Below are positions 589 to 17,493 of a DNA stretch of 17,839 nucleotides, in pieces. The position numbers and the translations under genes were made by a program. How positions within the stretch are numbered: the first letter of the stretch is position 1; each line of letters starts with the position of its first letter. The DNA lies in NCBI GenBank assembly GCA_964474885.1, contig CAYYWO010000013.1, positions 1-17,839 on the forward strand, written 5' to 3'. This DNA comes from Candidatus Hadarchaeota archaeon. GTDB lineage: Archaea > Hadarchaeota > Hadarchaeia > Hadarchaeales > JAWBSP01. The notes under the pieces were generated by a model. The model made no database searches. It saw nothing but the letters and a program-made list of their open reading frames with translations, and was not told the origin of the DNA.

Positions 589-1157
589 GAAGGTGTGATT
601 TATTAAAATATCATGATTATATTTCTTTTATTATTGACAAGTTATTGGAACGGTTATACAACCTGCTTAGGAAGACTGAGGATGAGATGACGGTGATGGC
701 CGTAAAGCATGTTATAAACGTACTGGAGGAGGAGAAGAGGAGTTTATGGTTTTCATCTCTGTGTAAGAAGGTATTCAGTGGTTATAGGATAGGGATGACG
801 GATTTGGATAAGGTTGTTGTTCTTAACGGAGAAATTAGGGCCTTAATCGAATATAAGTTCCGAAAGGAGGATTTTGATAAGGCCATACCTGTGAATGCGT
901 TCCAACTTATAACATTACAGGAATTATCCAAGTTGTCTGGCATTCCGTTGTACTACATAGTGGAGATAGGAGAATACAGTGAAAAGTGGTTCAGGATTTT
1001 TAAGGTCAATCCTGATAAAAGATACAGGATAAAGAGATGCGGCAATGGCAATGCAAGAGATACCTATTCATTAATCAATCTTAATAACACTATTTTAATG
1101 AATGAGTTAGAATTTAAGTCATGGCTCAAGGAGGTCATGACAAATGGAAAGAGATAA
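585..1157 (+). CDS. PD-(D/E)xK-fold nuclease-like protein, 190 aa
   Basis: TDLD...ALIEYK motif followed by QLITLQELSKLSGIPLYYIV; start moved to ATG 585 using AAGGAGG at 571-577. Confidence 0.7.
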   Translation: MRRCDLLKYHDYISFIIDKLLERLYNLLRKTEDEMTVMAVKHVINVLEEEKRSLWFSSLCKKVFSGYRIGMTDLDKVVVLNGEIRALIEYKFRKEDFDKAIPVNAFQLITLQELSKLSGIPLYYIVEIGEYSEKWFRIFKVNPDKRYRIKRCGNGNARDTYSLINLNNTILMNELEFKSWLKEVMTNGKR

Positions 1158-2211
1158 TTTTTATTCTCCCCCGAGAATTAATGTGGGAAGGCGACCTTCA
1201 GGTAGGATCGATTTTACATTAAGAATTGATAAGCAGCTATACGAGAGATTGAAGGAAATAAGCCAGTCTACTGGAAAATCCATAGCAGATCTCTTAGAAC
1301 CAAAGATTATTGAGTTAATAGCATTATACGATTCAAATTTGAAGAATAGTAAGAGTGGGCTCGCCCGGATTCGAACCGGGGACCTTCGCCTCGTAAGGGT
1401 ATCGTTGAAAGACCTCTACACCAAACATAAGAAGAAATTCATAGAGTATATGCGAAAGAGAGTGAAAAAAGGAGAAATCTCAGAAGAGACTGTGGATGAT
1501 TACATATCAGCGCTTGATAAGAACTTATCTCATGTAATGCATCCAGATGAGCTTGAGGAATTGGTTCTAAAGGTAAAGGGTGACAAATTCGCTAAGGGTC
1601 TTAGAAATTTCTTCAACTACTTGGAGGATAGAGGAATCACGGATATAAATGGCTATGATCTTGACAAGTGGCGAAAGAAGACACCAATAAAGAAATATGG
1701 CTCGAGAGAAATCTTCATTAGTGATGATGAGCTAAAAGAAGCTTATTATTCTCACATCAGAAAACAAAACGACGAAGAGCTTGAATTGGTATTCCTGTTA
1801 TTAGTTTACAGCGGACTTAGACTTAAACATCTCTGGAGAGCCTTGAAAGCTTTCGATCCTCAAAATGTTGTTCAAGTAAATGAAAAAGTGATAAGATATC
1901 CTGTTTTCTCTGTTTCAAGAGGAAAGAAGAAAGCTTATTGGCTTTATTGTCCATCAAGCATCAAATTGAGAAAAATAACACAAGGATATGACTATTTTGA
2001 AGAGAATATTATTTACAAGAGAGTTTCAGCGATAACGATCAGAAGTTGGAATTATAATTTCTTGATTTTCAAAGGCGTTCCAGAATCTGTTGCTGATTTC
2101 ATTCAAGGCAGAGCAAGTGTAACAGTCGGTTCAAGACATTACTTGGCAAAGACTAAGCAAGCTGATGAGTGGTATACCCAAGTTGTTGATAAGTTTCCTC
2201 TGGAGGGTTGA
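1144..2211 (+). CDS. int: SSV-type tyrosine integrase with N-terminal ribbon-helix-helix (RHH) domain
   Basis: YSGLR, TIRSW, ADFIQGR and RHYL catalytic motifs; FTLRIDKQLYERLKEISQSTGKSIADLL RHH pattern; attP inside the coding sequence. Confidence 0.93.
   Translation: MERDNFYSPPRINVGRRPSGRIDFTLRIDKQLYERLKEISQSTGKSIADLLEPKIIELIALYDSNLKNSKSGLARIRTGDLRLVRVSLKDLYTKHKKKFIEYMRKRVKKGEISEETVDDYISALDKNLSHVMHPDELEELVLKVKGDKFAKGLRNFFNYLEDRGITDINGYDLDKWRKKTPIKKYGSREIFISDDELKEAYYSHIRKQNDEELELVFLLLVYSGLRLKHLWRALKAFDPQNVVQVNEKVIRYPVFSVSRGKKKAYWLYCPSSIKLRKITQGYDYFEENIIYKRVSAITIRSWNYNFLIFKGVPESVADFIQGRASVTVGSRHYLAKTKQADEWYTQVVDKFPLEG
1356..1399 (-). other. attP: attP: 3' half of tRNA-Val(TAC)
   Basis: Minus strand reads CC-CTTACGA-GGCGA-AGGTC-CCCGG-TTCGAAT-CCGGG-CGAGCCC-A: anticodon loop with TAC, T-arm, 3' acceptor strand and discriminator. 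The 5' half is absent. Confidence 0.92.
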
Positions 2212-2545: not shown

Positions 2546-2621
2546 TTATTACGATCGTCTTATTATTTATTCTTTTACATTGTTTACGCCAATATATTGG
2601 TTGGTTTTTGCAAGGGGGTGA
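2546..2621. promoter_or_regulatory. Divergent promoter region (AbrB gene / structural operon)
   Basis: AT-rich gap between divergent genes; perfect palindrome CCAATATATTGG at 2589-2600; GGTGA RBS at 2617-2621. Confidence 0.5.
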
Positions 2622-2628
2622 GATCAAG

Positions 2629-2991
2629 GTGTTGAAGAGCGTGAGGGCTAAGCTCGCTTTAAAGTTGGCCAAGAAATTCGGCATCACAAAAGAAATGATC
2701 GAAGAAAGGAAGAAGGAGTTCTTGGCATGGCTTTCTGAGCGAGGATTGCAGCCAAGCTGGGAGAACTATGTTGCATTCATAAAAGATACGAGGGGACAAG
2801 GGAACCTAATTGATTGGGTCATAGGTGTCATTCTTTTGGCAATTCTCGGCGTTGGCGTGGCACTTCCGATCGTCATAGACACTGTTAATCAAATATCGCC
2901 AAATCTGTCGGGCACAACGGCCATGATCGTCGGAATTATTCCGACGATCGTGGTGGTAGTAATACTACTGATGTTCCTTGGCAGGCGTTGA
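2629..2991 (+). CDS. Major capsid protein candidate (VP1-like hydrophobic hairpin, long leader, class III cleavage site)
   Basis: GTG start after GGTGA; about 56-aa charged leader ending FIKDTRG|Q; two hydrophobic helices with an NLS sequon in the loop; first gene of the structural block. Confidence 0.75.
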   Translation: MLKSVRAKLALKLAKKFGITKEMIEERKKEFLAWLSERGLQPSWENYVAFIKDTRGQGNLIDWVIGVILLAILGVGVALPIVIDTVNQISPNLSGTTAMIVGIIPTIVVVVILLMFLGRR

Positions 2992-2996
2992 TTAGC

Positions 2997-3311
2997 ATGG
3001 ACCTCACAATTTTTATTATTTCAATAATCATAACAATAATATTTGCGATATTTGGCATGAAATACTACGCCTACAGAGTACTGAGCACGATCTTGTTCAT
3101 TCTTCTTGGCGTAATAGTGCTTGCGGAGAACATAACAGTAACGAATTATTTCGTTGCTACGGTGAACAATTCGACGCAAATTGTCAATACTACAACTGTT
3201 CTGCTATCTCCACCGTTGAATTGGGTTATTCCAATAGCTTTGATATTCGGCGGTGTAGCTCAGCTGGGAGGAGGAAGAAGAGAAAGGTTTGGGGGATTAG
3301 TACATGGCTGA
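2997..3311 (+). CDS. Three-TM membrane protein
   Basis: Three hydrophobic segments; loop with NIT, NNS/NST and NTT sequons; ATG 2997 preferred over TTG 2988. Confidence 0.8.
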   Translation: MDLTIFIISIIITIIFAIFGMKYYAYRVLSTILFILLGVIVLAENITVTNYFVATVNNSTQIVNTTTVLLSPPLNWVIPIALIFGGVAQLGGGRRERFGGLVHG

Positions 3312-3696
3312 TGAAAGATATTCTCAAGCTCAGCATCAGCAGATGGTTTACAATTGGATTCAGTTCCAAAAGACTTTGAGTGAGCCTCAATCTCCTCTCA
3401 TAACTTCAGATGTTACGAGGGCAGTTTTATCTAAGCAGGGTTGTAATTTCATCCGCAGGCTAACGCTTTTTGCTAATATGCTCAAGACGAAAGGCTTTCA
3501 CAATTCAGCGAAGATGGTGATCGACCTTGCTGGTGCTTACGCAATCGCAACGCTCGGAATGGGCAACTATGCAATGCTTATCGCTCAATCAGTTTGGAGC
3601 GTCAGAGCTTTCATGTATCCAGAGGAGCAGAAGGAGGACGACATCATAAGTTCGATTTCTAAGCATTTACAAGGCTTTTTGAAGAAGAAGAGGTGA
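3304..3696 (+). CDS. Hypothetical protein, 130 aa
   Basis: Overlaps the previous gene, co-oriented; no motif recognised. Confidence 0.8.
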   Translation: MADERYSQAQHQQMVYNWIQFQKTLSEPQSPLITSDVTRAVLSKQGCNFIRRLTLFANMLKTKGFHNSAKMVIDLAGAYAIATLGMGNYAMLIAQSVWSVRAFMYPEEQKEDDIISSISKHLQGFLKKKR

Positions 3697-3700
3697 GATT

Positions 3701-4411
3701 ATGAAGATTAACGCCGAGAAAGTTATGCTGTTGGTTTTCGGGCGGGATAGAACCGTCAGATTTGAGAAAGGGCTGAAGCTCAAGGACGACATAATATTGA
3801 ACGGAGATAGAGCTTACTTGAGAAGAAACAGTGGGAGAAACAGCTTAATGCTGTTTTTACAATCTTGCGTTGTGCCAGCGAAAGGCGAAAGCGTCAAAAT
3901 CGAAGATTTGTATAAGGCCTACGTCGATTTCTGCGAAGAATATGGCTTTGATATTCTCAACACTCAGAAGTTTGTGGACATCATCGACGACTACCTCGAA
4001 GTAGATGCTATGAATGGCGTTGTTAAGGACATAGAAATCGCCGATAAAAGGGTGAAAGTCGAGAAAGATGCTGATATCTACATCTACGAAAGGCAAAGCA
4101 TTTTCAGGAAGAGAAAGATACCGGTTTTCGTAGTCGTCGAAGGAGTGCCAAAGACGATTACTTTCGATGAGCTTAAGAGCTACGCAATTGGAACTAATGG
4201 CGAAGTTATCAGCTTGGACGATTTTACCTTAGGACAGATGCTAAGCGAGAGCATGTTCATAGGAGCGACCATTGGAACTCAAAAGCTATTTTCAGACATG
4301 AAATTCATGATCATAGTTACCTTAGCGATGGCTCTAATAGCTGTAATACTGTGTAGCTACAACCTGTACTATGTACAACAGATTTTGAATATTCTGCAGA
4401 AGATACTATGA
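3701..4411 (+). CDS. C-terminally membrane-anchored protein with internal D5-type winged-helix domain
   Basis: GAGGTGA RBS; internal FLQSCV...VKIEDLYKAYVDFCEEYGFDILNTQKF pattern; C-terminal TM FMIIVTLAMALIAVILCSY. Confidence 0.7.
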   Translation: MKINAEKVMLLVFGRDRTVRFEKGLKLKDDIILNGDRAYLRRNSGRNSLMLFLQSCVVPAKGESVKIEDLYKAYVDFCEEYGFDILNTQKFVDIIDDYLEVDAMNGVVKDIEIADKRVKVEKDADIYIYERQSIFRKRKIPVFVVVEGVPKTITFDELKSYAIGTNGEVISLDDFTLGQMLSESMFIGATIGTQKLFSDMKFMIIVTLAMALIAVILCSYNLYYVQQILNILQKIL

Positions 4412-4491: not shown

Positions 4492-4872
4492 ATGCAAGCG
4501 CAGAATCAGACTGAAAAAACAACTTTGGAAATTTACGGTGAGAAGATTGAGCAGTTAGATAGGATTTTCACATTCACATCGTCAGTTGAAGTGAAAGCCA
4601 AAGTATTATTCCAAATGGTAGAAATCTGCAAAAGACTAGAAGAACGTGGAATTCTTGAGCTTAGCACTGAAATCGACGAAAATGAGCTGAAGGAATTGTA
4701 TGTACATGCGATTCTAGCATCTAGCAACTTCCAGATCGATGCTGAAGCTGAGATTGTTAAGAGATTGTGCCAGATCGAATCTGACTTGGTGCTAGATTGT
4801 ATTGAGGCTGGTTTGATCGTGAGGTTTCATGTTCCTGAAGAGGATGTCTGGAGTATGTTGGGTGATAGATAA
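4492..4872 (+). CDS. Hypothetical acidic helical protein preceding the ATPase
   Basis: GGTGGTG RBS; TAATG overlap with the ATPase. Confidence 0.8.
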   Translation: MQAQNQTEKTTLEIYGEKIEQLDRIFTFTSSVEVKAKVLFQMVEICKRLEERGILELSTEIDENELKELYVHAILASSNFQIDAEAEIVKRLCQIESDLVLDCIEAGLIVRFHVPEEDVWSMLGDR

Positions 4873-5801
4873 TGACTCTTATTGCTAAACTAGCTGAAAA
4901 AGCGTATGAAATCGATGGATATGTAGATGCATTAATATATGGGGATAAGGGAGCTGGTAAAAGCGTATATGCGCTTATATCTGCATTTAAGATATACAAT
5001 GATTGGGATACAGTCTTAAAACACCTCTTTTTTAGCCCTAAAGAAGCTATAGATTTCATACTTGAAAAGCACGAACGTGGTGAAAGAGTTAAGATGATAA
5101 TATTAGATGATGCTGGGTTATGGCTTGGGAAATTAAGGTGGTGGGAGAAAGAAAAGGTCGAATTTGCAGACTTCTATGATGTTATAAGAGAAGTATGCGC
5201 ATGTGTTGTTTTTACGGCTCCCTCAGACAACATAATGAGAAAGATTGTAAAAGATATACAATTGAGGCTTCACGTTCAAATTATTAACGATATTAAATCT
5301 AAAATCAGGATATATAAGAGAAAGCTACTTCCAAGTTTTAAGGAGATTGTAAAGACTGTAAAAGATGAAACATTCGATAGATGGATTCCTGATGAGGTTT
5401 ATCAAAAGTATAAGGACATGAAAAGAAAAGCAACGTATGAGAAATTACTGAAAGTTAAAGAATCATTAGATAAGTCCGAAAAGGGGGAAAAGGAAGAAAT
5501 TGTTCAAAATATTATAAAAGAATATTATATTATCAAGAACGGTAAGGAAATAAAATTCGAAAGAATTGCTGTTAGTCATGCCGTTAGTAATGCTCGATAC
5601 ACTTATCGTTTAACAATTCCAAGACAAGTCAGGAAGATTTATGGTGATTCGATTGTGGACATTCCTATGATTTGGATTCGTTTAACTAATGATGTCTTTG
5701 ATTTCCCAATTATAGTCCCTGATCCTTATTATGAAGATTTTATAAATATATTTCTAGAAAAGAAAGGAGGTGATTCATCATCAGCTTCTACGACATCTTA
5801 A
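4872..5801 (+). CDS. P-loop ATPase (SSV1 B251-like) with C-terminal AbrB-like segment
   Basis: Walker A GDKGAGKS, Walker B MIILDDAG; C-terminal YRLTIPRQVRK. Confidence 0.85.
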   Translation: MTLIAKLAEKAYEIDGYVDALIYGDKGAGKSVYALISAFKIYNDWDTVLKHLFFSPKEAIDFILEKHERGERVKMIILDDAGLWLGKLRWWEKEKVEFADFYDVIREVCACVVFTAPSDNIMRKIVKDIQLRLHVQIINDIKSKIRIYKRKLLPSFKEIVKTVKDETFDRWIPDEVYQKYKDMKRKATYEKLLKVKESLDKSEKGEKEEIVQNIIKEYYIIKNGKEIKFERIAVSHAVSNARYTYRLTIPRQVRKIYGDSIVDIPMIWIRLTNDVFDFPIIVPDPYYEDFINIFLEKKGGDSSSASTTS

Positions 5802-6843: not shown

Positions 6844-6849
6844 TTGATC

Positions 6850-9264
6850 ATGATCATTTCATCAAAACTCTTCCGGTTGAGTCTGATCATCTTGGGAATG
6901 ATATTGGTGATAGGAACAGTGAATGCTACTGAATTGGTAGACATCAACTACACTCAGATGAAAGAAATATATCCGAAGCCAAATTGGTCAGTATTTCATG
7001 GTTTTGGATCTGATGATGCACCAAACTTATGCCTTGATGCAAGCGTGGAGGATGGAACGAATTGGTTCTTTGGTGATGGTGCAAGCAAGTCATCGGAGAT
7101 CGTTCATAGTGGTAACTACTCAGCTAAGTTAGATAGTACTGGTTACGTTAGTACGACATACACGGCTATTGCAACATCGCCTTATTTCAATGTGGAGAAT
7201 GACACCTTGTATGAAGTATCGTTTTGGGTATATTCGTACAGTAAAGGTGACACAAGGTATGCTACAGTACTATGGTACAACGCCACTGGAGCGTATTTGG
7301 GCAGAAGTGTGGACATACCTTTGGACAACCCACGCCATGAATGGGTTAAAATTATGTTCTTGGTCAGGTCACCTACTGATGCCGCTAAGGCAAGGATAAG
7401 AGTGAGTCAAATCAATTCTGAAAGTGGTATGATCGCATATTTAGATGACTTTGAGTTCAGGAAGTATACAGCGCTAATGTTGAGATATGGTAGCTATCAA
7501 GTGCCTTTGGTGATATTAGTTGACGATCTGCCCAAGACCGTCACTTTGCAAGCCAAGGTAAACATTGGTGGCAATTGGATCACGACCAACGTGACCAATT
7601 GGTCTGTAAAATTGGAAGATCAAACACTAACAGTTATATCTGCAAGCTACAACACTACATCTGGTTGGTGGGAAATCGTAACGACTATTCCAACTCTCGA
7701 TGTTGATATATACAACTTAACAGTCGAATGTGACCACACTGATACAGGGTATCACTTTTACACCAAAGGCAAGGTTTGGATTTACGAGCCAAAAGAGCTT
7801 GAGGATTTGGTAATTATCCACGTAAGCGATATGCACTTCTACGATAAGCTCGATCCGAGAAGATACGAAAACGACACCAATCTCATCAATGCGTTTTATA
7901 TTGCTGATCAAATAATAAACATCAAACCAGACATTGTAATTGACACAGGAGACTTGGGAGACAGCTATCAAGAACCACTCGAATATCTAACATGGATCGA
8001 TTACTTGAATGCGCATGGAATACCCGTATTCTACGTAACTGGCAACCATGAAGGGCATCCGAAAGGTCACTGGGAATTTAACCAAGATTACTATTGGAAG
8101 TGGGTAAAGTTCATGGGCGATCCAGACAGATACTACAGCGTCGATTTTGGAAATTACCGTTTAATAGCTATCTGGACCGATGAGAACAACACAGGTACAA
8201 CCAGCACCACAGCGGCGATGTATAATTCTCAGCTAGTGTGGTTCAAATCAGAACTTGAGGAAGCCACATCCCAAGGTAGGAAGATAATTGTTGCGATGCA
8301 TGTTCCTGCAATCTTGCCAAATGTAGGGCTTGGTACATCTTGGGCAAACATAACACAGAGAGATCTTATAATAAATTATGTGAACAACAGCAATGTTTTG
8401 ATAGTGTTACAAGGACACGAACACAACACAGAACCAGACAGTGAATTTATAAATGGAACGCTTTGGGTATTTACTCTCAGCTATGGTAAAGTTGTAAATG
8501 GCTTGGGAACTTGTGCTGATCCTGGATTTAGGATTGTGAGAATTGACGACTCTGGTGTTTATACATGGTATGTTCCTACATTCTATTACACACACATGGT
8601 TGACACGAAGAACCTATACGAGAATTGTACATTCTCTATTGACAGATTTGCAAATAAAATAGTTGTAGTGACTGAATTAGGTGAATTCTCAGAGCTTCCA
8701 ATTCAAACCGTTGAGAACGCCATGTGGCTCGGTGCTACGTTACAGTACCATCCAGACCAAGCTAATGTGCTGTTGCTCAAGGACATCAAGATTGGTAGCA
8801 AAGAATTCGTAAAGGTTCCAGCCTATGTTTCGGCTAACTGCGATGTCAATGTTACCTTGAACGAATACTCCTCCTCAAGGATTTCATTCACAGCGGATGC
8901 ACCAGAAGGAGAGAGTGTAATGTTCACAATTGGGGGATTATATCCAGATACTCTCTACAAGATCTTGGTGGATGGTAATTTAGCTAAGCTGAGAAAGAGT
9001 GATACTTCTGGAACTATAATCTTCAATTGGTCGGATTGGTCTACTCATACTTTCATAATTACGTCCTCTGAAGCTATAACCTACTCAAGCAATGTCTTAT
9101 TACCGTTAATACTTGGGGTTGGTATCGCATTATTAATACTTGCTGTAATCGCCCAAGCAACTCCAATGAGAATAGATGATATGATCTTCAAGAAGATTGG
9201 AGCTTTAGTCTTCGTTCTGATAATAGTGCTACTCGGTATGTCGTATTTCACACTTAATTGGTAA
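6850..9264 (+). CDS. Secreted, membrane-anchored carbohydrate-binding module + calcineurin-like metallophosphoesterase fusion
   Basis: Signal peptide; CBM4/9-like pattern (NLCLDASVEDG, HSGNYSAKL, YEVSFWV, YLDDFEF); all five metallophosphoesterase motifs (SDMH, GDLGD, GNHE, MHVP, GHEH); many N-x-S/T sequons; two C-terminal TM helices. Confidence 0.88.
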   Translation: MIISSKLFRLSLIILGMILVIGTVNATELVDINYTQMKEIYPKPNWSVFHGFGSDDAPNLCLDASVEDGTNWFFGDGASKSSEIVHSGNYSAKLDSTGYVSTTYTAIATSPYFNVENDTLYEVSFWVYSYSKGDTRYATVLWYNATGAYLGRSVDIPLDNPRHEWVKIMFLVRSPTDAAKARIRVSQINSESGMIAYLDDFEFRKYTALMLRYGSYQVPLVILVDDLPKTVTLQAKVNIGGNWITTNVTNWSVKLEDQTLTVISASYNTTSGWWEIVTTIPTLDVDIYNLTVECDHTDTGYHFYTKGKVWIYEPKELEDLVIIHVSDMHFYDKLDPRRYENDTNLINAFYIADQIINIKPDIVIDTGDLGDSYQEPLEYLTWIDYLNAHGIPVFYVTGNHEGHPKGHWEFNQDYYWKWVKFMGDPDRYYSVDFGNYRLIAIWTDENNTGTTSTTAAMYNSQLVWFKSELEEATSQGRKIIVAMHVPAILPNVGLGTSWANITQRDLIINYVNNSNVLIVLQGHEHNTEPDSEFINGTLWVFTLSYGKVVNGLGTCADPGFRIVRIDDSGVYTWYVPTFYYTHMVDTKNLYENCTFSIDRFANKIVVVTELGEFSELPIQTVENAMWLGATLQYHPDQANVLLLKDIKIGSKEFVKVPAYVSANCDVNVTLNEYSSSRISFTADAPEGESVMFTIGGLYPDTLYKILVDGNLAKLRKSDTSGTIIFNWSDWSTHTFIITSSEAITYSSNVLLPLILGVGIALLILAVIAQATPMRIDDMIFKKIGALVFVLIIVLLGMSYFTLNW

Positions 9265-11983: not shown

Positions 11984-14383
11984 ATGAGATGGCTGAGCAT
12001 AATTGTGGCATTAATATTCATCTGTGCGATTGGATTGGCTGATGCCAAAATATTGGAGGATTTCGACGATGGTAGCAATGATTTTTTCGCAGTATCAAGC
12101 AATCCGAGCTATGCCCACTCGGAGGAAATAAAGAATGATGGTTTTACCAAATATTTGCGTGTTAGTTATAAATTAGTAGATGATTATCAAGAAATATATT
12201 TAACAAATAATTCATTACATACTAGAACGATAAGCTTTGAAATAAGAAAAGCTTGGTATATGGCATCTTCTGCTACAGTATATATAAAAATAACTTTGAA
12301 TAACGGATATTATACGCAGGTCAGCAGCAGCGGCGGCGGCTGGTGGTATATAACCATGATCGGAGACTCAATTTTATTCTACAAGAATGGTGCACTGGTA
12401 AATCAAGTTGACAACACTGGTGGAGATTACATAAAAGGCATCAAAATAACAGTGCGAGCTGGTAAATATTACTCCGGATACAGCATGGGCATAGACATAG
12501 ACAACATAGCCGACTACGATTTCGTAGAAATTCACGATTACGATCAAATCCTCTACAAAACTCCAACGAGCGATACAATCCTTTATCTGAAATATATAGC
12601 CAAACCTTGGGCTAATAGCGTCAAAATAAACATAAGAGATTACGACGCTGGAATCGTCGTCGATACGATCGATCTAGGCAATACAACTTATGGCAAAGTT
12701 TCTACGAACATAACTGATTGGGATCTCGGATTGTATCAAGTAGAATTGATCGTCGACGGCCAGACCGAATCGACAAACTATTTCTTCTACGCCGACGGCT
12801 TGGCAAATCACTCCGTCGCTTTGGATAAGGAATCTTATCTATCCAATGAAAATATGCAAGCAAATTACAACATAGATCCCTACTATGCTTCTTACGATTA
12901 CTTTCTCAAGATCTACGATTCGAACGGGAACTTAATAGCGACCTATCCCGTATCTGGTTCAAGCGGTGTAAAATCCGTTCCCGCTCCCGAGAAAGGTGGA
13001 ACATATTACATTATCCTAACGAGATCCGACAATGTCGAATTGGCTTATGATGTATTCGGCGTCGTCGAGCAAGTAGTTATTAAAGGATACGTGAAAGATC
13101 AGTACGGAAATCCCATCTCAAACGCAACAGTAACTTTTAATCAGCTCACCAACATTTACAACGATACGACCGACTTCAATGGCTACTACGAATCGCCAGC
13201 TCTTTACGTAGGTGCAACGATCTACGTCAAAGCCAATAAAACAGGATATCAGCCCTACGATACGAGATTTACCCCCAAGAGCGGAGGAATCTATTGGCTT
13301 AACATGACGTTGGTAAACGATTCCGAAGCTTACGGCGTCTGGGGTATAGTAAAGCAAAAACCGCTGGGAAACCCTTTGGTTGGTGTCAAAGTGGTCATCG
13401 CAAACGAGACCTACAACAATACGGTGTACACGAACGATTACGGTTTCTACCGCTTTGACAGCATAGCTAATGGAACATACACCATTACGGCATCCAAGAA
13501 CAATTATACCTCTGAAAGTAAAACGATAACCGTAAGCGGCGATTGCAGAGTAGATTTTACCCTTACACCTATATACAAGCTAACTATACTCGCAAGAACT
13601 TCGTTTGGACTTTACCTCAACGAATTTCAGTGTACCATCGAAGATCAAACAACAGGTAAGCGTTATACATTTAACACCACAAAAGGCAATGTGATTGCAT
13701 TTTTGCAAACTGGTTGGTATTCGATCTATGTTACAACCGACAGATACTATGGTTCAGCAACTGTCTATCTGTATGGTGATAAGGTTGTAACCGTAACTGT
13801 AGCCGAGCTGCCGAGTGGGTTGCAAAAACAGGTTGTAGTTTACCCTCCCTTACATGCAATAACGCTTAAGATTGTAAAAGGACTGAAACCCCTAGTAGAT
13901 GTTCCCATTGTAATTACGGATCAGTATGGCAACAGCACAACTGTTTACACCGATTCGTACGGAAGAGCGGTATTCTGGGGCAACAAGACGATAAAATACA
14001 CGATAAACGTGAACAACAGCGAGAAGGTTGTGGAGCTTTATCCTTCCGAATCTGAATACATAATCGTGATTCCGAAGGGTTTAAACTACACGGTTAATCA
14101 AACAGTTCAGCAATATACGGTTGTAAACGGAACTTGGCAATGGGGGCTGACTGGGATTGCTGGTAACTTATCAAAGCAACTGTCCCCCTCGGCAAAAGGA
14201 ATAATAACAGCCATAGTAGTTTGGTTGGCGATGTTCGGAACCGCAAGATTTATGCAGAATGCGAGCGTTGTCGGATTGATTACTTTGGTTATATTGGCTG
14301 TTATCGGCTTCGCAGATATTATAACCGCCGTATTCTGCGGCCTATTCGTCGTAGGCATGTATGTTTTGAAGAGGTGGTTATGA
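11984..14383 (+). CDS. Large adhesin/tail protein with carboxypeptidase-regulatory-like beta-sandwich repeats, probably glycosylated
   Basis: Signal peptide; repeats IKGYVKDQYGNPISNATVTF...TDFNGYY and VWGIVKQKPLGNPLVGVKV...TNDYGFY; about 20 sequons; C-terminal TM helices. Architecture is analogous to SSV1 C792/VP4. Confidence 0.82.
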   Translation: MRWLSIIVALIFICAIGLADAKILEDFDDGSNDFFAVSSNPSYAHSEEIKNDGFTKYLRVSYKLVDDYQEIYLTNNSLHTRTISFEIRKAWYMASSATVYIKITLNNGYYTQVSSSGGGWWYITMIGDSILFYKNGALVNQVDNTGGDYIKGIKITVRAGKYYSGYSMGIDIDNIADYDFVEIHDYDQILYKTPTSDTILYLKYIAKPWANSVKINIRDYDAGIVVDTIDLGNTTYGKVSTNITDWDLGLYQVELIVDGQTESTNYFFYADGLANHSVALDKESYLSNENMQANYNIDPYYASYDYFLKIYDSNGNLIATYPVSGSSGVKSVPAPEKGGTYYIILTRSDNVELAYDVFGVVEQVVIKGYVKDQYGNPISNATVTFNQLTNIYNDTTDFNGYYESPALYVGATIYVKANKTGYQPYDTRFTPKSGGIYWLNMTLVNDSEAYGVWGIVKQKPLGNPLVGVKVVIANETYNNTVYTNDYGFYRFDSIANGTYTITASKNNYTSESKTITVSGDCRVDFTLTPIYKLTILARTSFGLYLNEFQCTIEDQTTGKRYTFNTTKGNVIAFLQTGWYSIYVTTDRYYGSATVYLYGDKVVTVTVAELPSGLQKQVVVYPPLHAITLKIVKGLKPLVDVPIVITDQYGNSTTVYTDSYGRAVFWGNKTIKYTINVNNSEKVVELYPSESEYIIVIPKGLNYTVNQTVQQYTVVNGTWQWGLTGIAGNLSKQLSPSAKGIITAIVVWLAMFGTARFMQNASVVGLITLVILAVIGFADIITAVFCGLFVVGMYVLKRWL

Positions 14384-15124: not shown

Positions 15125-15322
15125 ATGGTCTGGTTGAAAATTGAGGGAGAAGATGAAAGTATCAATCTCATCGAAGTGCACAGCATCAAAGCTATTTCAA
15201 TTAAGCCGCTGAGGAACGGCTTGGGAATTATCATAATGTCTGATGTTGTCGAAATCAAGCAGACTTTAGAAAGTGATGCGGATCCTGAAGAATTCGCCAA
15301 AGCTTTAATTGAAGCCTCTTAA
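15125..15322 (+). CDS. Small acidic hypothetical protein, 65 aa
   Basis: GGGTGA RBS ending at 15120, ATG 15125. Confidence 0.72.
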   Translation: MVWLKIEGEDESINLIEVHSIKAISIKPLRNGLGIIIMSDVVEIKQTLESDADPEEFAKALIEAS

Positions 15323-15812
15323 TAGCATCAAGATGATTATTGAGATAGTTCATATATAACCTCTTGAACTCTTCAAACTTTATATTTTTATCTTTCAATT
15401 CATGTCTTAGATCTTTTGGAGCGCCCAGCTCCTTAAATGATACATACTCTATTCCAACCTTGTTTAGTGCTTCCTTTAGCTTAGTCTTTGAAAATCCATT
15501 CTTCCTGCTTAAAGGCAACTCTCTAACATCTACAAGCAACTTTATTCCATGCTTCTGAAGGATATCTATAAAGTTGCTTACGGTCTTGCCTTCATAGCCT
15601 ATCGTATATATAACGGACTTTGCCTCTTCTTGATCTTTTAAAAGCTCTAAGGCTGACCTAAAGTTGTTTTTTGAGACCAAGTCTATATACAGCTTTAGAG
15701 CTTCTTCAACAGCTTTCCCAACAAAACCTCTTATACCACCATACCTTTTCTTAACAACATCTCTGAACTTAAACCAAAGTTCATCGTCAATTTCTACCTT
15801 TAATTCTGCCAT
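15255..15812 (-). CDS. RHH + DUF488 fusion, apparently C-terminally truncated
   Basis: N-terminal LKVEIDDELWFKFR...VEEALKLYI (RHH); IYTIGYEG, LVDVRELPLSRKNGFSK, IEYVSFKELG (DUF488); the usual C-terminal CxE...CHR is missing. Confidence 0.8.
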   Translation of the reverse strand: MAELKVEIDDELWFKFRDVVKKRYGGIRGFVGKAVEEALKLYIDLVSKNNFRSALELLKDQEEAKSVIYTIGYEGKTVSNFIDILQKHGIKLLVDVRELPLSRKNGFSKTKLKEALNKVGIEYVSFKELGAPKDLRHELKDKNIKFEEFKRLYMNYLNNHLDAIKRLQLKLWRILQDPHHFLKSA

Positions 15813-16290: not shown

Positions 16291-16833
16291 TCACCAGATC
16301 CTCCAGAAATCGTCGCTTTTCTTTTTTCTCTTGCGCTTGCTTGAGGATGAGTCACCCCAAAGAGATGGAACGTTTATTCCTAAGTCGAAGGATGACGATG
16401 ATTTCTTCTTTCGAGAGGATTCGCTTTTCTTAGAGGATTTTCCCCTCTTTGAGCTTGTTAAGGATGGAATATCAATCCCTAAGTCAAAAGATGATTCCTT
16501 CTTCCTTCGGGAAGATCTCCTTGAGCTTGTTAGGGATGGGATCTCGATCTCCAAGCTGAATCCAGAGGATTCTTTCTTAGCTTTAACAATCTTATGCCTG
16601 TCTCTCTTAGTTTTGATATGATGACATTCTGGGCAAAGCGCTTGAATGTTGCTTATGTCATCTTCTCCACCCAAAGCAAGCGGTTTCTTGTGATCAAAAT
16701 GAATAACACCTGGCTTGAGCCGCTTACCACACATTGCACACCTGTAATTCTGCCTTTCAAGAATAACTTGCTTCTCCCATTCAGAAAGCTTCTTTCTTTT
16801 CTTTTTCTTTTCACCAAATAGAAAATCAAACAT
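16291..16833 (-). CDS. HNH endonuclease with Ser/Lys-rich repeat tail
   Basis: CAMC...HFDHKKPLALGGEDDISNIQALCPECH; AAGGAG RBS favours ATG 16833; three FxLxIx[IV]PSL repeats. Confidence 0.9.
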   Translation of the reverse strand: MFDFLFGEKKKKRKKLSEWEKQVILERQNYRCAMCGKRLKPGVIHFDHKKPLALGGEDDISNIQALCPECHHIKTKRDRHKIVKAKKESSGFSLEIEIPSLTSSRRSSRRKKESSFDLGIDIPSLTSSKRGKSSKKSESSRKKKSSSSFDLGINVPSLWGDSSSSKRKRKKKSDDFWRIW

Positions 16834-16863
16834 TCCTATCAACTCCTTTCGTTAATTAAGCAA

Positions 16864-17018: not shown

Positions 17019-17171
17019 ATGGCAGTGTCAGTTAAAATCGAAATTCCAGAGGGAATGTATGAGGAAATTAAGAAGTTAGTCGACAGAAAGTTATTCAGGA
17101 ATGTAGCAGACTTCTTTTACATTGCAGGCCATGAAAAACTGTTTAGCATCAAAAGCTTGGAGAAAGAGTAA
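17019..17171 (+). CDS. CopG/Arc/MetJ-type RHH regulator, 50 aa (not in ORF track)
   Basis: GGTGA RBS at 17009-17013; MAVSVKIEIPEGMYEEIKKLVDRKLFRNVADFFYIAGHEKLFSIKSLEKE. Confidence 0.85.
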   Translation: MAVSVKIEIPEGMYEEIKKLVDRKLFRNVADFFYIAGHEKLFSIKSLEKE

Positions 17172-17313: not shown

Positions 17314-17491
17314 GTTGCATGCAACTGTATGCTATAATATATGCATGCAACTGCATGCAATTAGAGTTAAATGTATGCGATACTATAAAAATACTTTATT
17401 CTCTTCTTTTCTCTCATACTTTATTCTACGATTTTCTTTTGAGGAGTGAATAATAAACCAAGTTATCTAAGTTGCATGCAACTGCATGCAA
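17314..17491. repeat. Three copies of a tandem TGCATGCA palindrome unit
   Basis: TGCATGCAACTG(C/T)ATGC at 17316, 17342 and 17473; ATACTTTATTCT direct repeat at 17391 and 17416. Confidence 0.85.
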
Positions 17492-17493
17492 GG

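Follow-up and report, generated by a model that had tools for sequence, protein, structure and literature searches.

A class III-like motif at the aligned VP1 maturation cut of a probable spindle-virus capsid precursor encoded on a 17.8-kb archaeal contig

Which enzyme removes the leader of the VP1-type capsid proteins of spindle-shaped archaeal viruses? The question is raised by a short gene in the stretch of DNA analysed here, contig CAYYWO010000013.1 (C13), whose entire 17,839 nucleotides (17.8 kb; the window) form one of the 60 contigs of a 1.18-Mb bin. In the fusellovirus SSV1, according to Iverson 2017 (PMC5748691), virion VP1 starts at a conserved Glu, the protease that cuts the precursor was not known in 2017, and viral enzymes, cellular enzymes and self-cleavage were all left open as candidates. 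An initial annotation, made from the letters of the window alone, had described the open reading frame (ORF) at positions 2629 to 2991 as a capsid-like protein with a long leader ending in a prepilin-peptidase site. We find that the gene product is probably a VP1/VP21-type alpha-helical hairpin major capsid protein precursor of a spindle-type virus or provirus, probably one of Archaeoglobi, and that its predicted cleavage site coincides in alignments with the SSV1 maturation cut. Cleavage after Gly56 by a host type IV prepilin or pre-archaellin peptidase (PibD/FlaK/ArlK, family A24) is a plausible idea, and the statement as a whole is one that we hold with somewhat less than even confidence.

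The plus-strand frame is open from TTG 2608 or GTG 2629 to the stop codon at 2989-2991, as read directly from the sequence. A Shine-Dalgarno-like box lies 6 nucleotides upstream of GTG 2629, and the identical 120-amino-acid (aa) product in the public protein collection (P0002) is called from the same codon. The leader of the deduced protein ends in T-R-G, and the predicted mature part of 64 aa is a two-helix hairpin with a short loop; direct reading of codons and frame agreed with the initial annotation that the Gln codon is at 2797, that the leader has 56 aa and that the two-helix remainder has 64. An AlphaFold2 model built with a 17-sequence alignment (mean predicted local distance difference test score, pLDDT, 67.7) places the hairpin helices at residues 60-72/79-92 and 96-117 and has its best-scored blocks (pLDDT 83-90) in the leader, at residues 21-50. 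Two hydrophobic segments are present in 100 of 102 family proteins. P0007 and P0025 (= L009:5911-6282) carry an additional hydrophobic helix at the extreme N-terminus of the leader, and precursors of this type may be anchored by three helices before processing.

Profile comparisons revealed homology to the capsid proteins of spindle-shaped viruses. A profile search of 1.84 billion representative sequences returned 88 proteins at E<=0.001, and comparisons were made with 17 close homologues (alignment A1) and with an 85-sequence alignment of representatives from that search (A2). In hhalign, SSV1 VP1 matched A1 at 81.7% (E 1.1e-5) and A2 at 96.6% (E 6.1e-10), and A2 matched His1 VP21 at 70% (E 3.9e-5); BLASTP aligned the window protein itself with SSV1 VP1 over 118 aa (E 4e-10, 26% identity). 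Pfam family His1_capsid (PF25665) was matched by 14 of the 85 relatives and VP1_VP3 by two, which together with the profile homology to SSV1 VP1 bears out the description of the protein as capsid-like. When one genome per species was scanned for the pattern, four relatives turned up, each on a contig from Archaeoglobi metagenome-assembled genomes (MAGs). As judged from sequence comparison, the protein is a newly recognised member of the VP1-type capsid family, from an Archaeoglobi-type virus.

The nulls in these searches would accord with an alternative in which the ORF, on a plasmid or integrated element, encodes a small membrane protein unrelated to capsids. No Pfam family matches the window protein by itself at E<=0.01, the phage collection holds no match for the whole window (megablast) or for the protein (tblastn with the low-complexity filter on), the pattern scan of IMG/VR viral contigs found no relative of the protein, and PAV1 ORF121, a positional analogue, lacks detectable similarity. 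Against these stand the profile similarity to both SSV1 VP1 and His1 VP21, the His1_capsid and VP1_VP3 matches among the relatives, and the neighbouring genes, which encode an SSV-type integrase, an ATPase of fusellovirus type and large C-terminally anchored proteins with lectin/Ig domains, and we regard a non-capsid protein as very improbable. The Protein Data Bank (PDB), searched by sequence with the family profile, gave no match, and Foldseek comparison of the AlphaFold2 model with the PDB gave none at E<=0.001, the top non-significant row being SSV19 VP1 (E 3.7). Neither the window protein nor any of the 85 relatives matches Pilin_N or an archaellin family in Pfam, and neither pilB nor pilC was found among the Pfam-scanned ORFs of the window. 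The capsid protein, going by its predicted layout, is not a pilin, since the second transmembrane (TM) helix and the basic C-terminus bring the chain back to the cytoplasm; it is possibly processed like one.

N-glycosylation takes place outside the cell, and the loop between the two helices carries an N-x-S/T sequon in all 17 close homologues and in 79 of the 85 representatives. [quoted passage not shown] The sequon and its glycosylation thus suggest a precursor with the loop outside and both ends inside, in which R-G↓Q (↓ marks the cut) would be cytoplasmic and directly before the membrane helix. Such a topology would exclude signal peptidase I, which acts at the outer face and after the helix.

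Analysis of the alignments placed the T-R-G-Q of the window protein on the T-K-G-E of SSV1 VP1 in hhalign with A1 and with A2, in BLASTP and in MAFFT alike. The SSV1 reading frame consists of a leader of ~65-70 aa ending in T-K-G, then Glu, then the first hydrophobic helix; the RefSeq SSV1 record lists no coding sequence for VP1. Ten fusellovirus VP1 frames were aligned, and [KR][GA]E is present at the known or presumed cut in all nine that bear a leader, with Gly at -1 in four and Ala in five; the tenth frame (SMF1) is annotated to start within helix 1, without a leader, and was excluded from this count. Iverson 2017 reports that removal of the SSV1 VP1 leader, or merely of the five residues before the cut, abolishes infectivity, and that the SSV2 leader has only 15 residues (PMC5748691). 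From the aligned frames, the pair of a basic residue at -2 and a small residue at -1 that is seen in the window protein is thus among the 'well-conserved residues' that precede the cut in SSV1. Homology of the leaders themselves was considered and dropped as a claim, because a BLASTP comparison of the window and SSV1 leaders alone was not significant (E 0.70).

The RG↓Q site, for which the initial annotation had named a lack of conservation in homologues as a refutation, is conserved across the family as well as aligned exactly on the K-G↓E mature boundary of SSV1. Among the 17 close homologues, -1 is Gly in 16 and Ala in one, -2 is Arg or Lys in 13 and Ala in four, and +1 is Gln in seven, Glu in five, Ala in two, Arg in two and Thr in one; almost or full invariance is also seen for Asp at -4 and for Asp-Trp at +6/+7. 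Motifs were then counted from -12 to +3 around helix 1 and compared with 1000 shuffles within that interval. Of 89 sequences, the 88 representatives and the window protein, 84 could be used; the other five either lacked a second hydrophobic segment or had a helix at the extreme N-terminus. [KR][GA] precedes helix 1 in 71/84 (shuffles: mean 35.6, maximum 48), [KR][GA][QE] in 49/84 (58%; mean 4.2, maximum 12) and [KR][GA]Q in 40/84 (mean 2.2, maximum 7). The corresponding background, taken from crude ORFs of the bin of at least 150 aa with a TM segment, is 52/187 (28%) for [KR][GA] and 4/187 (2%) for [KR][GA][QE]. In the aligned columns of A2 (n=85), Arg or Lys occupies -2 in 69, Gly or Ala occupies -1 in 72 with Ser in two more, and Gln or Glu occupies +1 in 52; [KR][GA] is strictly in register in 60/85, and several of the misses are alignment slips.

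When the cut is taken at the last [KR][GA], leader length ranges from 3 to 92 aa (median 34) and the remainder from 59 to 83 aa (median 66), as would be expected were the remainder alone the building block. The initial annotation had taken the 56-aa leader to be long enough for a function of its own. Leaders of 15 aa or fewer occur in 18 of the 85 representatives. Where the leader has just 3-12 aa, it holds a few basic residues ahead of K-G or K-A, after which come Gln or Ala and the helix, and these relatives resemble ordinary class III signal peptides. Many distant relatives (P0028-P0104) have acidic leaders that end in D-R-[GA]-Q and are followed by x(1-6)-N-L; relatives of this type probably belong to haloarchaeal spindle-virus-like elements.

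Retention of the leader, or its removal elsewhere, would turn [KR][GA][QE] into a structural element, either a positive-inside charge combined with a Gly that breaks the helix where the membrane begins, or part of a DNA-contacting N-terminal arm in the virion. The positive-inside rule makes Lys and Arg common near the cytoplasmic end of a helix, as the 28% background for [KR][GA] illustrates; His1 VP21 functions without a leader; and the authors of the SSV19 cryo-electron microscopy structure, in which 69 of 84 residues were modelled, assign DNA binding to the Arg-rich N-terminus of the virion protein and do not mention cleavage (PMC9351363). The three-residue motif, however, is far above its 2% background, the cut in SSV1 VP1 falls precisely on the aligned position, and the extreme variation in leader length beside a tight mature length is what a removed leader predicts. 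A soluble three-helix domain of 56 aa on every subunit would also be hard to accommodate on the inner face of a lattice of 64-aa hairpins. We therefore regard a structural role for the motif as rather improbable, and consider it likely that the window protein is cleaved between Gly56 and Gln57.

The pathway that we propose would begin with insertion of the precursor in the host membrane, both ends cytoplasmic and the glycosylatable loop outside. Cleavage behind Gly56 (T-R-G↓Q), at a site that faces the cytoplasm and corresponds by homology to the SSV1 VP1 maturation cut, would then free the 64-aa hairpin with an N-terminal Gln, and this hairpin would build the capsid. The most likely protease would be the host type IV prepilin/pre-archaellin peptidase PibD/FlaK/ArlK of family A24, and if the cleavage itself is granted we give this enzyme slightly better than an even chance. 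It is proposed because of the Arg or Lys at -2, the Gly or Ala at -1, the frequent Gln at +1 and the position of the site immediately ahead of a membrane helix. All type IV prepilin peptidases require Gly, Ala or Ser at -1, archaeal sites depend critically on a charged -2 residue, and the cut lies before the H-domain (PMC4371748); positions -2, -1 and +1 matter most (PMC4371748; PMC3387779; PMC10117864). EppA substrates need Gln at +1, and the sites listed for M. maripaludis include KGQ and RAQ (PMC4371748; PMC3387779), while PibD accepts signal peptides down to 3 aa and archaellin signal peptides have 11-12 aa (PMC10117864).

The window site has the class III features at all three positions (R55-G56-Q57), and the family columns follow the same rule, with Arg or Lys at -2 in 69/85 and Gly, Ala or Ser at -1 in 74/85. 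The bin encodes A24 peptidase, and so do all four of the Archaeoglobi MAGs that bear relatives, a presence that is no evidence of cleavage. Putative archaellin and pilin hits in the Archaeoglobi MAGs, as we read the six-frame matches, show a recognisable cleavage site in 26 of 28 cases, and -2 is Lys or Arg in 19 of these 26 sites and Asp, Ala, Met (three) or Ser (two) in the other seven, so a non-basic -2 occurs in presumed natural substrates too. A complex prediction for an Archaeoglobaceae A24 peptidase with the window precursor, run with no controls, gave an interaction prediction score from aligned errors (ipSAE) of 0.02/0.01 and a mark of 0.32, and counts neither way. Full-text literature searching found no paper that ties a prepilin peptidase or a class III signal to VP1 or to spindle-virus capsids; key subscription papers lay outside that search, and priority is thus uncertain.

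Several observations weigh against a prepilin peptidase as the cutter. The window leader has 56 aa, compared with 3-12 aa in described class III signal peptides (PMC10117864), and the cut is followed by Q-G-N-L-I-D-W before the helix, a polar or small spacer with an invariant Asp at +6, unlike the archaellins and pilins of the hosts in the Archaeoglobi sample, which are hydrophobic from +1/+2. Position -2 is Ala in four of the close homologues, is Ser or Ala with G↓Q retained in ~10 of the 85 representatives, and is Ala in three of the four Archaeoglobi-MAG loci, which read D-T-A-G↓A. The window protein fails a FlaFind-type core pattern, and the same pattern matches 16 of the 85 representatives, by our reading with the correct placement in ~10. 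SSV1 variants E66Q and E66A are still infectious, with 57% and 81% abnormal particles, respectively, according to Iverson 2017 (PMC5748691), and the +1 residue is thus not critical in SSV1. The DNA-binding role given to the SSV19 N-terminus counts on this side as well, as does His1 VP21, which has neither leader nor site and thereby indicates that processing is not obligatory for the hairpin fold. A pibD deletion strain of S. islandicus did not replicate SSV9 at all, which its authors tied to the missing pilins (PMC7217056); we rejected this experiment as a test of VP1 processing, on which it is silent.

The same atypical traits (the leader, which reaches up to 92 aa in relatives, the polar spacer, the minority with Ala or Ser at -2 and the failed FlaFind-type pattern) are what would be expected if the G56↓Q57 cut were made by another host membrane or cytoplasmic protease, by an unrecognised viral protease or by self-cleavage, the class III likeness being convergent or merely a basic and a small residue at a helix start. 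The invariant Glu at +1 in fuselloviruses, unlike the pilins and archaellins of hosts in the Archaeoglobi sample, fits another enzyme too, several ORFs of the window lack a family assignment, and Iverson 2017 keeps all three kinds of candidate in play (PMC5748691). No peptidase family was found, however, among 24 window ORFs scanned with Pfam (13 + 11) or among nine scanned with PHROGs, in line with the initial annotation, which had seen no viral peptidase, and the predicted topology speaks against signal peptidase I. The identical site is retained across viruses of very different hosts, which favours a universally present host enzyme. No other archaeal protease is known to prefer [KR][GA]↓ immediately ahead of a TM helix. 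That an enzyme other than the prepilin peptidase cleaves at G56↓Q57 is, in our estimate, unlikely. The initial annotation thus held up on the capsid-like protein, the maturation site at RG↓Q and the lack of a visible viral peptidase, and its identification of the cutter is the part that we keep as a proposal.

The SSV1 cut site belongs to a much wider conserved [KR][GA]↓[QE] motif that is common to distant relatives in other archaeal lineages. Since the motif is located where prepilin peptidases act, it supplies a testable candidate for the VP1 protease, and we advance only tentatively, with more doubt than conviction, the extension that VP1-type capsid proteins in general are matured by the type IV prepilin peptidase of the host. 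Spindle viruses of Sulfolobales, of Archaeoglobi and of the salt-lake-like relatives would on this view all have a class III-type site before the first capsid helix, and their assembly at the membrane would rely on the machinery of pilin processing. The capsid hairpin may share ancestry with the N-terminal pilin helix or mimic it. If the proposal is true, virion assembly in the most widespread archaea-specific virus morphotype depends on an enzyme with which the host builds pili and archaella, the virus resistance of peptidase mutants gains a second explanation beyond loss of a pilus receptor, and signal-peptide predictors become usable for annotating capsid genes in metagenomes. If PibD/FlaK does not cut, the protein would be an ordinary VP1-family member from an Archaeoglobi-type virus. 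The value lies less in the single gene than in the family-wide class III-like site at the VP1 maturation cut.

Comparison with known systems sets the window protein closest to fusellovirus VP1, represented by SSV1 and its homologues in SSV2, SSV4, SSV6, SSV7, SSV8 (Ragged Hills), SSV9 (Kamchatka 1), SSV19 and ASV1, with which it shares the two-helix hydrophobic hairpin, N-x-S/T sequons in the loop, a leader of variable length (~65-70 aa in SSV1, 13-17 aa in SSV2, SSV7, SSV8 and SSV19), the [KR][GA] pair directly before the mature start residue, and a gene position near an SSV-type integrase and a DnaA-like ATPase. Apart from the low identity to SSV1 VP1, it differs in having Gln at +1 where fuselloviruses have an invariant Glu, and in its invariant Asp-Trp at +6/+7, which fusellovirus VP1 lacks. 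Neither a VP3 paralogue nor VP2 follows the capsid gene in the window, the downstream ORF at 2997-3311 having been ruled out as VP3-like (hhalign 0.4%), and the probable host class is Archaeoglobi, compared with Sulfolobales for the fuselloviruses. The likeness to class III signal peptides (PibD/FlaK(ArlK)/EppA) consists of Gly or Ala at -1, Arg or Lys at -2, Gln at +1 as in EppA substrates, and a cut on the cytoplasmic side that precedes a hydrophobic helix; besides the leader length and the spacer with Asp at +6, the window protein differs from these substrates and from pilins in its second TM helix, in lacking a globular outer domain and in lacking pilB/pilC as neighbours. His1 VP21, the major capsid protein of Halspiviridae, belongs to the same hairpin fold family but starts 7 residues before helix 1, with no leader and no [KR][GA] site.

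TPV1 gp15 and PAV1 ORF121 of the Thermococcales spindle viruses, which we take to be the capsid proteins of their viruses, are likewise small hairpin membrane proteins heading a similar structural module with large lectin-domain proteins. By eye only, TPV1 gp15 (L056 8215-8553) is a two-helix hairpin with a very basic leader of ~30 aa that ends in R-R-R-R-G immediately ahead of the first helix, a layout like that of the window protein, and the TPV1 integrase is 33% identical to that of the window; gp15 is annotated merely as 'membrane protein'. PAV1 ORF121, which lacks an R-G pair immediately ahead of its helix, was not accepted as a relative (hhalign 4%).

Table 1. Positions of the capsid gene, its parts and its neighbours in the window (aa, amino acids; nt, nucleotides).
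Feature	Position	Strand	Basis or remark
SSV-type tyrosine integrase, intact	1144..2211	+	PF16795, E 8.7e-45
Shine-Dalgarno-like GGGGGTGAG	2614..2622	+	6 nt 5' of GTG 2629, read directly
VP1-type major capsid protein precursor (probable), 120 aa	2629..2991 including stop	+	ORF, homology to SSV1 VP1
Leader, 56 aa, predicted helices 2-16, 21-38, 44-55	2629..2796	+	AlphaFold2 model
R55-G56-Q57 codons AGG GGA CAA, predicted cut after Gly56	2791..2799	+	aligned to SSV1 K-G-E
Hydrophobic helix 1, ~aa 63-83, invariant D62-W63 just before	2815..2877	+	sequence, homologues, model
N92-L-S94 N-glycosylation sequon, inter-helix loop	2902..2910	+	conserved N-x-S/T
Hydrophobic helix 2, ~aa 96-117, then basic C-terminus G-R-R	2914..2979	+	sequence, homologues, model
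Three genes travelling with the capsid gene: membrane protein, 130-aa protein, 236-aa protein	2997..4411	+	same order in L007, L009, L010
DnaA-like AAA+ ATPase	4872..5801	+	phrog_5484, E 2.4e-36
Two ~800-aa proteins, N-terminal signal-like helix and C-terminal anchor	6844-9264 and 11984-14383		
DUF488 protein beside the HNH gene	15255-15812	-	E 3.2e-24
HNH endonuclease, repetitive Ser/Lys-rich tail	16291-16842	-	PF01844, E 4.6e-12; 39-nt direct repeats at 16445-16555

The genes of the contig are, by their sequence matches, those of a small spindle-type archaeal virus (Table 1). The integrase is 67% identical to one that lies just upstream of the homologous capsid gene in L009, a locus that is probably an integrated provirus because it lies within a 73-kb contig. 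Gene order in the Archaeoglobi relatives is shared, with the capsid gene, the membrane protein, the 130-aa protein, the 236-aa protein and the ATPase in succession, and within the phage collection the AAA+ ATPase has its best tblastn matches in Archaeoglobi proviruses and in fuselloviruses. The 236-aa protein (3701-4411) combines a Pox_D5/primase-C-terminal-like winged-helix match (PF03288, E 7.5e-6) with a C-terminal TM helix. The two large proteins (806 and 799 aa) have lectin/Ig-like domains and C-terminal TM segments; one carries a calcineurin-like phosphoesterase domain and a weak CBM_4_9 match, the second combines CarboxypepD_reg/Big_1 domains with a weak resemblance to His1 ORF27, and both are probably adsorption or tail proteins.

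The bin was rejected as the host of the element because its G+C content is mixed (52-56% in large contigs, 39% in the window contig and 33-43% in many small contigs), a mismatch that points to mixed populations. Judged from the relatives, the host class is likely Archaeoglobi. The 92% completeness of the bin and its single A24 peptidase, on contig C11 (47.5% G+C), tell little about the host of the virus. A 91-nucleotide stretch at 17079-17169 is 96.7% identical to positions 154-244 of contig C54 of the same bin (2.7 kb, 39.7% G+C), which could reflect a further copy of the element, an att-like site common to both contigs or a fragment of the assembly; no tRNA was found in the window by ARAGORN. 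The HNH and DUF488 genes lie on the strand opposite to the structural module. Three copies of a 20-nucleotide repeat (~TGCATGCAACTGYATGCWAN), spaced 26 and 131 nucleotides apart, occupy non-coding sequence at 17316-17492, with a 22-nucleotide pair nearby at 17391-17437; these repeats look iteron-like and may mark an origin or a regulatory region.

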